DNA from: Candidatus Hydrogenedentota bacterium
GTDB taxonomy: Bacteria; Hydrogenedentota; Hydrogenedentia; Hydrogenedentales; SLHB01
Reading direction: 5' to 3'
DNA length: 16,535 nt
Assembly: GCA_029974275.1 (NCBI GenBank)
Contig: JARKSN010000317.1
Span: forward strand, 1 to 16,535
The notes beneath the pieces are model-generated. The model ran no database searches. It saw only the letters and a program-made list of their open reading frames with translations, and was not told the DNA's origin. Shown in pieces: positions 1,824 to 6,269 of the stretch (positions are counted from its first letter, which is position 1; each line of letters opens with the position of its first letter). The position numbers and the translations under genes were made by a program.

Positions 1824-2285
1824 ATGCTCACGAAAAAAGCAAAATACGGCATCAGCGCGGTGTTGGCGCTCGCGCGCGAATACGAGCACGGCCCCATGCT
1901 CATCGCGGACTTGGCCGAGCAGGAAAAAATCCCCAAGAAATTCCTGGAGTTAATCCTCCTGGAACTCAAAAATGTAGGCCTTTTGCAAAGCAAAAAGGGA
2001 AAAGGCGGGGGATATGCGTTAGGACGACCGCCATCGGAAGTCACCATGGGGCAAATCATCCGAATACTGGACGGTCCCCTGGCACCCATTCCATGCGTGA
2101 GCAAAACGGCATACCGAAAATGTGACGAATGCCGCGACGAGCGAACCTGCGGCATCCGCTTGGTCATGAAAGACGTGCGCGACGCCATCGCGGAAGTCCT
2201 TGATCATGCAAGCCTTATGGACGTCCTCGACCGTGTCCAAGCCGCCGAGGAAAATCAGGCGAAGACGTCGATGTATTACATCTGA
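1824..2285 (+). CDS. Rrf2 family transcriptional regulator (CymR/IscR-like), with 4-Cys motif and C-terminal MYYI tail
   Basis: wHTH signature MLTKKAKYG...IADLAEQEKIPKKFLELILLELKNVGLLQSKKGKGGGYALGRPPSEVTMGQIIRILDGPL. Cysteines at C91, C100, C103, C109. Lies directly upstream of the sulfate ABC genes. Confidence 0.95.
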   Translation: MLTKKAKYGISAVLALAREYEHGPMLIADLAEQEKIPKKFLELILLELKNVGLLQSKKGKGGGYALGRPPSEVTMGQIIRILDGPLAPIPCVSKTAYRKCDECRDERTCGIRLVMKDVRDAIAEVLDHASLMDVLDRVQAAEENQAKTSMYYI

Positions 2286-2406: not shown

Positions 2407-3411
2407 ATGCGTAACGTGATTCGAATCGTAGTGATGGCAGTGGCGCTGGCGGCAGGTTCTGCATGGGCCGCCCCGCAAATCAGCATGCTCAATGTTTCGT
2501 ATGACCCGACGCGCGAGTTGTACAAGGATGTCAACACGGTCTTTGCTGCGGAATGGAAGACAAAGACAGGAAAGGACCTGGACATTAGGCAATCCCACGG
2601 CGGCTCGGGCAAGCAAGCGCGCGCAGTCATTGATGGTCTGGAGGCTGACGTGGTGACATTGGCGTTGGGGTATGACATCGACGCCATTGCGGAGAAAGGC
2701 GGTCTGCTCGACGCAAATTGGCAGAAACGCTTGCCGAACAACAGTTGCCCGTACACATCGACCATCGTGTTCTTGGTGCGCACCGGAAACCCGAAACAGA
2801 TCAAGGACTGGGACGATCTGGTGAAACCGGGGGTGTCGGTCATCACGCCCAATCCCAAGACCTCGGGTGGCGCGCGGTGGAATTATCTCGCGGCATGGGG
2901 ATATGCCTTGAAAAAAGACAACGACGAGGCAAAAGCCAAGGAGTTCATCGCGGCGTTGTTCAGAAATGTTCCGGTGCTCGACACGGGAGCGCGCGGATCG
3001 ACGACGACGTTTGTCGAGCGGGGGATCGGGGACGTGCTGCTCGCATGGGAAAACGAAGCGCTGTTGGCAATCAACGAATTGGGCAAGGGGAAATTTGAAA
3101 TTGTCGCGCCGTCAATCTCGATCCTGGCCGAACCCCCTGTAGCGTTGGTCGACAAGAATGCCGCCAAAAATGGCACGACCGATGTGGCCAAGGCCTATCT
3201 CGATTTTCTCTACAGCGACGCCGCCCAAGAGATCGAAGCGAAACACTACTACCGACCCAGCAACGAAGCCGTCGCGAAGAAGTACGCAGCACAATTTCCG
3301 AAAATCACCTTACTCACCATCGACAACGACTTCGGCGGCTGGAAATCCGCCCAGGAAAAACATTTTAATGACGGCGGCGTATTCGACCAAATCTATGCGC
3401 CGGGTAAATAA
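2407..3411 (+). CDS. sbp: Sulfate ABC transporter periplasmic substrate-binding protein
   Basis: Strong SD GGAGGT, signal peptide ending AWA-A, and family motifs [74 protein letters not shown]. Confidence 0.97.
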
Positions 3412-3481
3412 GTAAAAAAAGATGCCGGGGCAACCGCTTGGGAAAGAGGTTTCCCCGGCCGCCAAATCCCCGAGGAGACGC

Positions 3482-4309
3482 ATGCGACTGCGCGAACGGA
3501 GCATTATTCCAGGGTTTGGGTTGACGTTGGGTTTCAGCCTGACGTACCTGTGCCTTTTAGTGCTTATTCCGTTGTCAATGTTGTTTGTCCGGACGTTCTC
3601 GATGACGTGGGCCGACTTCGTGCATACCGTGACTGGGCCGCGCGCCATCGCCTCGTACAAGCTCACCTTCGGAGCATCGTTTGCAGGCGCATCGATCAAC
3701 GCCGTTTTCGGCCTGCTGGTCGCCTGGGTGCTGGTGCGGCACCGGTTCTGGGGGCGCGATTTGGTCGACGCGATGGTCGATCTCCCCTTCGCATTGCCGA
3801 CGGCCGTGGCGGGCATCGCCTTAACGGCGGTGTATTCGTCGAACGGCTGGATCGGCCGTTTTCTGGAACCGTTGGGCGTCAAAGTCGCCTTCACCCCACT
3901 AGGCGTAATTGTCGCCCTAACCTTCATCGGCTTGCCGTTTGTCGTGCGCACGCTCGAACCCGTGATCGAAGACCTCGACGCAGAGGTTGAAGAAGCGGCG
4001 GCGACGTTGGGCGCGACACGCTGGCAGACCTTCGTCAAGGTGATCTTTCCGGGGTTGCTTCCCGCGCTGTTGACAGGCTTCAGCCTGGCCTTTGCGCGCG
4101 CGTTGGGCGAATACGGATCCGTCGTGTTCATCTCCGGCAACATGCCCATGAAAACCGAAATCGCGCCCTTGTTGATCATGACGAAACTCGAGGAATACGA
4201 CTACGCCGGCGCCACGGCAATCGCCGTGACCCTCCTGCTCGTCTCGTTCGCGCTGCTGTTGTTCGTGAATCTGTTGCAATGGTGGAGCCGAAGGAGCCGC
4301 GCGACATGA
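3482..4309 (+). CDS. cysT: Sulfate ABC transporter permease CysT (CysU)
   Basis: Motifs IIPGFGLTLG, VDLPFALPTAVAGIAL, EAA loop EEAAATLGA, FARALGEYGSVVFISGNMP. Start placed at 3482 after GAGGAG (alternative 3422). Confidence 0.95.
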   Translation: MRLRERSIIPGFGLTLGFSLTYLCLLVLIPLSMLFVRTFSMTWADFVHTVTGPRAIASYKLTFGASFAGASINAVFGLLVAWVLVRHRFWGRDLVDAMVDLPFALPTAVAGIALTAVYSSNGWIGRFLEPLGVKVAFTPLGVIVALTFIGLPFVVRTLEPVIEDLDAEVEEAAATLGATRWQTFVKVIFPGLLPALLTGFSLAFARALGEYGSVVFISGNMPMKTEIAPLLIMTKLEEYDYAGATAIAVTLLLVSFALLLFVNLLQWWSRRSRAT

Positions 4310-5196
4310 CGCCTTCCGGACAAACATCCTCCGCAGAACAGACCCGGCTTGAGCCGCCGGCCGTTCGGTTCGTGTTGCTGGGCGTCTCCCTCACGTTCCT
4401 GGGCTTGTTTCTCGTGGTGCCCCTGGCGGTCGTATTCGCCCAGGCCTTCTCAAAAGGCATCCACGTCTATTGGGCCGCCATCGTCGATCCGGACGCCCGA
4501 CACGCCATCTGTCTGACGCTCGTCACTGCGCTTGTCTCGGTGCCGATGAACGTCGTCTTTGGCATCGCGGCGGCGTGGGCCATCACCAAATTCGAATTCC
4601 GGGGAAAAAACATCCTCATCACCCTGATCGACCTGCCCTTCACCGTGTCGCCAGTCATTTCGGGTCTTATCTTCGTGCTGCTGTTCGGCGCCCAAGGCGC
4701 GTTCGGGCCGTGGCTCTCCGCGCACGACATCAAAATCATTTTCGCCGTGCCGGGCATTATCCTTGCCACGACGTTCATCACCGCCCCGTTCGTCGCGCGC
4801 GAACTGATTCCGTTGATGCAAAGCCAAGGAAGCGAGGAAGAAGAGGCGGCGCTGTCGCTTGGCGCAAACGGCTGGCAAACCTTTTGGCGCGTCACGATAC
4901 CCAACATCAAATGGGGTTTGCTCTACGGCGTGATCCTATGCAACGCCCGCGCCATGGGAGAATTCGGCGCGGTGTCAGTCGTATCGGGCCACATTCGCGG
5001 CAGAACCAACACGATGCCGTTGCACGTCGAGATTCTCTATAATGACTACAATTTCGCGGGCGCGTTTGCCGTGGCGTCGCTGTTGGCGATGCTGGCGCTG
5101 GCGACGCTGGCGTTGAAGAAAATCGTCGAATGGCGCGTGCGCCAAACGCTGGCCGAGGCGGAACGGATGGCTAGCCAGGGAAAGATCCCCGCATGA
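4306..5196 (+). CDS. cysW: Sulfate ABC transporter permease CysW
   Basis: Motifs [74 protein letters not shown] overlap with the cysT stop at 4306-4309. Confidence 0.96.
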
Positions 5197-6269
5197 ACAT
5201 CGAAGTCCGCGACATCACCAAAAATTTCCACGACTTCACCGCGTTGCGCGGAGTATCGCTGCAGATGGCCTCCGGCGATCTAACCGCATTGCTGGGACCA
5301 TCCGGATCGGGCAAGACGACGCTCTTGCGGATCATCGCCGGACTCGAAACGCCGGATAGCGGACATGTGTTGTTCGATGGCGTCGAGACGACCGAACGCG
5401 GCCTGCGCGAGCGACAAGTGGGATTTGTGTTTCAGCATTACGCCCTCTTCCGGCACATGACCACCTTCGAGAACGTCGCCTTCGGCCTGCGCGTGCGGCC
5501 GCGCGAACAACGCCCCACACGAAAAGAAATCCGCGATCGCGTCATGAAACTGCTGGCGTTGGTTCAACTCGACAAATTCGCCGATCGCTATCCGAGCCAA
5601 TTGTCTGGCGGCCAGCGACAACGCGTAGCCTTGGCGCGCGCGTTGGCGATCGAGCCCAACGTGCTGTTGCTCGACGAACCCTTCGGCGCGCTCGACGCCA
5701 AAGTGCGCAAGGATCTGCGCCGGTGGCTGCGACGTTTGCACGACGAGATACACGTGACCAGCGTGTTCGTGACGCACGACCAGGAAGAGGCCCTCGAACT
5801 GGCCGACAAGGTCGTCGTCATGAACGAAGGCAAAATTGAGCAGATCGGAGCGTCGGAAGAGGTGTACCATCAACCCGCCACGCGGTTCGTGTACGATTTC
5901 CTCGGAAACGTGAACCTATTCCACGGCCGCGTGCAAGACGGCACCGCATTCATTGGCGGCATGGCCGTCGACATGCCCGAAGCAGGCCACGATGGCCCCG
6001 CGCAAGCCGTCGCGTACATCCGTCCGCATCTCCTCGATATCGCCTACCACCACAACGGCGAGAGCCATTTCCAAGCGCGGGTCACCCATATCAACGCGGC
6101 AGGCCCCATCGTCAAGGTCGAACTCGAAACCGACGTCGGCGACACCGTCCACGTCGAACTGTCGCAACAACGCTACGCCGAACTCGATCTCAAAAAAGGC
6201 GCGCACGTCTTCGTAACCCCGAAAGACATGAAAGTCTTCCTCATCGACTACGCCGACTACAGCATCTAA
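5193..6269 (+). CDS. cysA: Sulfate ABC transporter ATP-binding protein CysA (with C-terminal TOBE region)
   Basis: Walker [10 protein letters not shown]-loop VFQHYALF, signature LSGGQRQR, Walker [13 protein letters not shown]-loop [12 protein letters not shown] overlap with cysW. Ends in ...[10 protein letters not shown]. Confidence 0.97.

Follow-up and report, generated by a model that had tools for sequence, protein, structure and literature searches.

A candidate cysteine synthase docking tail on the bacterial sulfate transporter ATPase CysA

We investigated the C-terminus of CysA, the ATPase of the sulfate ATP-binding cassette (ABC) transporter, encoded in a 16,535-nucleotide stretch of Candidatus Hydrogenedentota DNA (contig JARKSN010000317.1 of assembly GCA_029974275.1; this whole stretch is hereafter the window). 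The protein ends in the tetrapeptide DYSI, and endings of the same kind recur at the extreme C-terminus of CysA proteins from several phyla. We propose that the tail docks in the cysteine synthase CysK, making CysA a probable client of the CysK docking system and a new kind of client for it, a transporter. The gene and its tail lie as follows:

5193..6269, forward strand: cysA, sulfate ABC transporter ATPase of 358 amino acids, with a nucleotide-binding domain and a CysA_C_terminal/TOBE_3 regulatory domain
6246..6266, forward strand: CysA C-terminal tail D-Y-A-D-Y-S-I, candidate CysK docking peptide (DYSI core at 6255-6266; stop codon at 6267-6269)

A sequence-only reading of this DNA had placed DYSI at the end of CysA, and the codons bear it out: window positions 6240-6269 are CTC ATC GAC TAC GCC GAC TAC AGC ATC TAA, translated L I D Y A D Y S I stop, and they close the 358-amino-acid open reading frame (ORF) at 5193-6269 (+). 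The protein scores 391.3 bits on TIGR00968, above the cut-off of 342.75, and 425 bits on the E. coli-type equivalog NF008105, short of the cut-off of 502. Its Pfam domains are ABC_tran, CysA_C_terminal (241-283) and TOBE_3 (289-344), and the same Pfam scan found no STAS domain. The DY unit of the tail is doubled (DYADYSI, 6246-6266), a trait shared with the 98%-identical sequence P0002; this doubling looks like a small internal duplication that has lengthened the linker to nine residues, compared with the usual six to seven.

Endings of this form are known from proteins that dock in the CysK active site. Excerpts of the source papers, on which this and the later citations are based, confirm the reference tails named in the sequence-only reading, namely DFSI (2Q3C), GDGI, DYII and the CymR tail in the CysK active site. 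Decapeptides of S. aureus serine acetyltransferase CysE (NGEIQDDYII) and of the regulator CymR (EDLDGYMFYI) have been crystallized in the active site of S. aureus CysK, where T73, N76, T77 and Q145 hold the carboxylate of the terminal Ile; the CymR peptide binds with a dissociation constant (KD) of 25 nM, a pentapeptide alone is enough, and O-acetylserine (OAS) dissociates both the CysK–CysE and the CysK–CymR complexes (10.1101/2024.09.19.614015). DFSI is the native terminal tetrapeptide of M. tuberculosis CysE, captured in CysK1 in crystal 2Q3C, and in H. influenzae most of the binding energy comes from the terminal Ile (2022 review, PMC9547175). Listed tails include GDGI (enterobacterial), DFMI and DYII (10.1101/2025.03.26.645513). 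CysA shares with CysE the terminal Ile with its carboxylate free, in a sequence of the D-[FY]-x-I or G-x-G-I type, DYSI of the window's CysA standing beside DFSI of M. tuberculosis. It differs in its carrier, which is an ABC ATPase and not the preceding pathway enzyme, and in being much shorter, mostly six to seven residues after the folded domain. Foreign proteins can use the same route: by imitating the CysE tail, the CdiA-CT toxin of uropathogenic Escherichia coli (UPEC) 536 brings a folded domain into direct contact with CysK (PMC5562914, PMC4961446), although, as those excerpts describe it, CysK serves there as an activating cofactor of a toxin and not in a housekeeping regulatory circuit.

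The single sequence had led to the prediction that a terminal [DE]-[YF]-x-I would be kept in a clade of CysA orthologues, and such endings are indeed retained in large clades of several phyla. C-termini were read in four samples: the best 120 of 1136 database matches to the CysA C-terminal domain, 109 of them at least 330 amino acids long; 80 CysA loci from named genomes; 150 representatives of 50%-identity clusters, with the C-terminus reached in 60; and a census of the window's own phylum, in which 121 genomes gave 63 CysA-grade matches, 62 of them read and 1 cut by a contig end. Endings of the form [YF]xI were carried by 36 of the 109 best matches (alongside 7 G.I or GI, 1 other Ile and 65 without Ile), 41 of the 80 named loci (10 G.I or GI, 29 none) and 30 of the 62 own-phylum genes (1 GEGI, 31 none). 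The 60 cluster representatives gave 19 such endings, one of which (LFAI) is probably a mere strand end, together with 1 GI, 1 other Ile and 39 none. When the 30 phylum loci read first were added to the other three samples, 267 sequences with 233 distinct C-termini resulted, and 121 of these 233 end in Ile (101 [YF]xI, 18 G.I or GI, 2 other).

The aromatic tails converge on the consensus [ED]-D-[YF]-x-I, which places them in the D-[FY]-x-I class of CysE tails. Across the 101 aromatic tails, position -4 is E in 44, D in 18 and Q in 12; position -3 is D in 74 and N in 10; position -2 is Y in 81 and F in 20; position -1 is S in 50, V in 21, A in 10 and T in 8; and position 0 is Ile without exception (101/101). 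A second, minority class of CysA tails ends in GGGI or GEGI and mirrors the GDGI class of CysE. The motif [DEN][YF]xI forms the extreme C-terminus of 90 of the 233 distinct CysA ends, and within the last 30 residues of the same 233 it occurs internally only twice, as unrelated matches within the last strand; a non-Ile last residue was met once in 233 (EDYTV). Such strict anchoring at the free carboxylate is the pattern expected from a C-terminus reader. Nor does the ending reflect chance, because Ile and [YF]xI endings are far commoner in the CysA family than in the genome background. Among all ORFs of at least 100 amino acids in the window's genome (n = 14186), 2.5% end in Ile and 22 (0.155%) in [YF]xI; once overlapping ORFs are removed (n = 3459), 88 (2.5%) end in Ile and 7 (0.2%) in [YF]xI, two of these seven being CysA and the regulator of the same operon. 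CysA is the only Ile-ended protein among the genome's 14 ABC-ATPase paralogues.

The state of the tail has changed repeatedly over CysA evolution. On trees built with the last 15 residues trimmed, tail and no-tail states require at least 24 changes on a 135-row FastTree and, on the 120 rows left after removing 15 long-branch rows, at least 18 (quick IQ-TREE) or at least 19 (careful IQ-TREE); shuffling the tail labels on the quick 120-row tree gives 32-44 changes. By phylum, the 80 named loci bear tails in 40/44 Bacillota, 4/4 Omnitrophota, 2/3 Thermodesulfobacteriota, 1/1 Planctomycetota, 1/1 Hydrogenedentota, 1/4 Nitrosomonas and 2/4 unnamed loci, in 0/8 Acidobacteriota and 0/7 Gemmatimonadota, and in 0/1 each of Actinomycetota, Myxococcota, Nitrospirota and Elusimicrobiota. 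CysA proteins of the Bacillota Priestia megaterium and Neobacillus carry PEDYSI endings. Comparison of these sequences indicates that the tail is under selection in many lineages. Three genomes of the window's phylum have two cysA copies (G058, G094, G089), and all three pair one [YF]xI copy with one tail-less copy (L167-L169 versus L091, L098, L100), which suggests one CysK-gated and one ungated pump in each.

A second candidate CysK client is encoded at the same locus, where the genes around cysA are:

1824..2285, forward strand: Rrf2-family, CymR-like regulator of 153 amino acids, ending TSMYYI (MYYI codons at 2271-2282)
2407..3411, forward strand: sbp, periplasmic sulfate-binding protein (NF008022, 535.3 bits against a cut-off of 288)
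3422..4309, forward strand: cysT permease (TIGR02139, 413.5 bits against a cut-off of 246.1)
4279..5196, forward strand: cysW permease (TIGR02140, 419.4 bits against a cut-off of 329.1)

The operon order is sbp-cysT-cysW-cysA, with cysA last and the Rrf2 regulator gene upstream. The regulator (1824-2285) ends AKTSMYYI, and 113 of its best 120 homologues end in Ile, nearly all of them in [YF]-x-I (LMYYI, VDFQI, LNFYI, IDYTI); many of the best homologues come from Geobacter relatives. On the CymR equivalog NF047409 it scores 92.4 bits, below the cut-off of 195; the Rrf2 superfamily model is the only one whose threshold it clears. By its tail, the regulator is likely to be the locus's second CysK client, CymR-like without being classed as CymR. 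Its MYYI resembles the MFYI of S. aureus CymR, and it would read the same signal as CysA. In the CymR–CysK pairs of B. subtilis and S. aureus, too, CysK is the OAS sensor for a non-enzyme client through an MFYI tail; CymR, however, is a DNA-binding repressor that acts on transcription, whereas control of CysA would be post-translational and exerted on the pump. CymR has so far been found only in Gram-positives according to the excerpted 2024 preprint (10.1101/2024.09.19.614015). In 24 operons with an Rrf2 gene beside cysA, pooled from the window's phylum and others, Ile tails occur on both proteins in 13, on neither in 10, on the regulator only in 1 and on CysA only in 0. The naive Fisher p of 5.6e-6 for this coupling is overstated, as it ignores relatedness, and the independent pairs, 1 on well-supported branches and 4 on all branches, confer no statistical power. 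Coupling of the regulator tail to the CysA tail is therefore best called suggestive.

The putative partner is present as well. A CysK-type enzyme had been presupposed by the sequence-only reading, and two genes of the genome encode CysK, with TIGR01139 scores of 460.9 and 457.2 bits (cut-off 350.95). The CysK substrate loop T70-S-G-N73-T74 and Q143 are invariant across a 49-sequence alignment, and the solved structures closest to the genome's CysK include E. coli CysK of the CdiA-CT complexes 5j43 and 5j5v (408 bits), H. influenzae 1y7l (373 bits), M. tuberculosis CysK1 2q3b and 2q3c (359 bits) and Arabidopsis 2isq (353 bits). Co-occurrence of the CysA tail with CysK, also part of the earlier reading, stands in that CysK exceeds its family cut-off in 27 of 29 CysA-bearing genomes of the phylum; it falls short as a discriminator of tail state, for which CysK presence proved uninformative, the enzyme scoring over the cut-off with or without a tail. 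CysK-like genes lie in the flanks of cysA at 3 of 80 loci, and all three CysA proteins are Ile-tailed:

L034, 6481-7419: CysK-like gene flanking cysA
L065, 7132-8040: CysK-like gene flanking cysA
L019, 9044-9955: CysK-like gene flanking cysA

At one Geomonas and one Planctomycetia locus the CysK-like gene follows cysA immediately; at a Geobacteraceae locus it lies about 2 kb downstream of cysA.

In the mechanism we propose, the free-carboxylate motif [ED]-D-[YF]-x-Ile of CysA would insert into the CysK active site as the CysE and CymR tails do. At low OAS, when sulfur is sufficient, a CysK dimer would dock on the two tails of the CysA dimer and restrain its ATPase and transport, a brake that would resemble inducer exclusion and parallel the lowering of SULTR1;2 uptake by plant OASTL. 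OAS building up under sulfur limitation would outcompete the tails, freeing pump and enzyme, and the same OAS signal would release the CymR-like repressor; transcription and transporter activity would then read one sensor. Docking probably restrains transport, as the plant system and the control of other ABC importers through their regulatory domains suggest by analogy; whether the effect is a brake or a stimulation is the least certain point of the mechanism. The sequence-only reading had also offered an uptake–assimilation complex. This channelling variant is its weaker half, because several reduction steps part sulfate import from CysK and because the tail would obstruct the CysK active site and not supply it.

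The nearest precedent is from plants, where OASTL-A binds the STAS domain of SULTR1;2, with lower uptake in yeast and higher OASTL activity (Shibagaki and Grossman 2010 via PMC4212615). In that account, too, the contact is between a cysteine synthase and the cytoplasmic C-terminal part of a sulfate transporter, and uptake falls, as proposed here for CysA. The two systems would be analogous and not homologous: SULTR1;2 is an SLC26/SulP secondary carrier with a STAS domain, whereas CysA has no STAS domain. Plant OASTL is, in the same excerpts, activated on binding, whereas a CysA tail in the active site would inhibit CysK. Inducer exclusion offers a second likeness, with EIIA-Glc binding the MalK regulatory domain and halting ABC import. 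There, too, the target of a cytoplasmic metabolic sensor is the C-terminal regulatory domain of the ATPase of an ABC importer, although the sensor and the interface are different and no terminal peptide takes part. Full-text searches, with subscription papers outside their coverage, found no literature link of CysA or a sulfate ABC transporter to CysK via a tail.

Strict anchoring at the free C-terminus fits any carboxylate reader, and the tail might dock one other than CysK: a PDZ-type or tail-specific protease or adaptor, for which it would be a degron that sets CysA turnover, or another protein of sulfur metabolism. Aromatic-x-hydrophobic-COOH is the form of class II PDZ ligands and of the outer-membrane protein (OMP) tails read by DegS. 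We nevertheless consider another reader unlikely. The motif, with its acidic residue at -3 and its terminal Ile (Ile in 101/101, with one Val variant), matches the tails crystallized in CysK; GGGI and GEGI mirror GDGI, the other known CysK tail class; and the operon's regulator has a CymR-type tail that occurs together with the CysA tail. CysA is, moreover, cytoplasmic, whereas most bacterial PDZ proteases are periplasmic.

In the AlphaFold2 (AF2) monomer model of the window's CysA (mean predicted local distance difference test score, pLDDT, 87.6), the last strand spans residues 347-351, and residues 354-358 are coil with pLDDT <50. In a typical short-tail orthologue ending VFVEDYVI (mean pLDDT 91.3), the last five residues are likewise coil, and the mean pLDDT drops from 94-95 to 69 in the last block. 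As modelled, the CysA tail is exposed, hanging off the folded regulatory domain and outside the fold. Tail-less orthologues end 0-5 residues past the last strand, and a search of three of them for hidden tails beyond early stop codons found none. Aromatic tails extend 2-17 residues after the strand aromatic, 6-7 in 82 of 101, and the tail of the window's CysA extends 9.

The shortness of most tails, at 6-7 residues past the last strand, suits an alternative in which the tail acts inside the transporter, folding back on the TOBE or nucleotide-binding domains of the CysA dimer or on CysT/W in autoinhibition or assembly, and resembles CysK ligands by convergent chance. C-terminal domains of the ABC ATPases ModC, MetN and MalK mediate trans-inhibition, and the AF2 models cover the monomer only. 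Action within the transporter is nonetheless quite improbable: the monomer shows no packing of the tail, the end is constant although linkers of 2 to 17 residues occur, the tail state has changed at least about 18 times with the remainder of the protein retained, and the same motif ends unrelated proteins, both CysE and the Rrf2 regulators (113/120 homologues Ile-ended).

The window's genome is 100% complete by markers, and its sole serine acetyltransferase (SAT)-like protein (L004 1315-2142 (-), G000:C110) scores 115.6-117 bits on the CysE model, below the cut-off of 210.65, and ends FDYKSVD, with no Ile tail. Its closest relative, G002 (L152), likewise has only a divergent SAT-like protein with no Ile tail (115-119 bits on the CysE model for the two genomes), and canonical CysE is found in 26 of 29 other phylum genomes. 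With no Ile-tailed CysE in either genome, CysK may there have CysA and the regulator as its chief clients. This, with the inevitable loss of CysK catalysis once a tail occupies the active site, would suit a last alternative, in which CysK docks and CysA is a membrane sink that holds it inactive or localized, the controlled quantity being cysteine synthesis or the free CysK pool for the regulator; we hold it highly doubtful, as transporter copy number is probably low relative to CysK, the plant precedent in its excerpted form reports an effect on uptake, and only one copy is tailed in 3/3 two-cysA genomes, a pattern easier to reconcile with control of one given pump than with a sink of a general kind.

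We looked within the phylum for CysA and CysE tails that exclude each other and found no such pattern; nor does either tail require the other. With CysE ends read by a simple ORF heuristic (no candidate at 2 loci, 2 running off the contig), a CysE Ile tail accompanies the CysA Ile tail in 7 phylum genomes and is missing beside it in 11; of the genomes without a CysA tail, 1 has a CysE tail and 6 have none. CysE and CysA tails are of the same class in two genomes, GGGI with GEGI (L147, L105; G045) and SDYSI with ADYAI (L143, L101; G068); the classes differ in five other genomes, and there is no consistent matching.

Several observations weigh against docking of the CysA tail in CysK. The motif begins just 2-3 residues past the last strand in most orthologues, so that docking would require the regulatory domain to lie immediately against the opening of the CysK cleft. 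An ending of the right form is also no assurance of a complex: N. gonorrhoeae CysE has a DFMI end and, in the excerpted account, forms no cysteine synthase complex in vitro by gel filtration or small-angle X-ray scattering (SAXS) (10.1101/2025.03.26.645513). Half of the own-phylum CysA genes lack the tail, as does E. coli K-12 CysA, which ends LALAQSA, and the tail is thus dispensable for transport. CysK is equally frequent in tail-less genomes, so that co-occurrence does not discriminate between them. Regulator–CysA coupling rests on about four independent changes per trait on the tree, and genes in one operon have a shared history. Finally, a Pfam scan of 14 long CysA relatives found one Usp fusion, one PilZ fusion and one CysW–CysA fusion, and no CysA–CysK fusion.

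A wider proposal, to which we assign roughly even chances, is that CysK is a general OAS-sensing hub in at least six phyla, which at one locus would gate an ABC pump within seconds through the CysA dimer tails and set transcription through the tail of the CymR-like Rrf2 regulator. The sulfate pump would then be the first ABC importer regulated by placing its own C-terminus in a metabolic enzyme's active site, and would give the plant SULTR–OASTL pair a convergent bacterial counterpart. Textbook control of sulfate uptake is transcriptional, via CysB or CymR, and we know of no molecular mechanism for fast post-translational control of bacterial ABC-type sulfate uptake; a CysK-gated pump, if real, would supply one. 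It would likewise add a transporter to the known CysK clients, which to date are CysE, CymR and the CdiA toxin, and would mean that contact between a cysteine synthase and a sulfate transporter, an idea from plants, arose independently in bacteria. The CysA tail has probably been overlooked until now because model organisms are without it: E. coli CysA is tail-less, and B. subtilis and S. aureus, to our knowledge, lack this pump or pathway. CysA tails also constitute a large natural peptide library, relevant to CysK inhibitors modelled on such tails.

Some features of the locus and of CysA relatives are recorded here as observations in their own right. The Rrf2 regulator has four Cys in PCVSKTAYRKCDECRDERTCG, which B. 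subtilis CymR is not known to have, and it may thus hold an Fe-S cluster. A second Rrf2-family gene of the genome (G000:C158:2394-2930 (-), locus L200) ends TKTRMYHI, a CymR-type tail, and its neighbours gave no NCBIfam family match. A search of the window's two promoter regions for operator-like inverted repeats (seed 6) found none. Seven CysA orthologues of phylum genus g34 (L190-L195, L197) share a terminal Phe (FENMSHF, FDNLTNF, FEDETDF), which may be another C-terminal motif for some reader. The CysW–CysA fusion P0125 retains a QDYSI end. Other CysA relatives carry fused C-terminal domains, Usp in P0131 and PilZ in P0251, which mark the C-terminus as a place for attaching regulatory inputs, and it looks like a general port for them.

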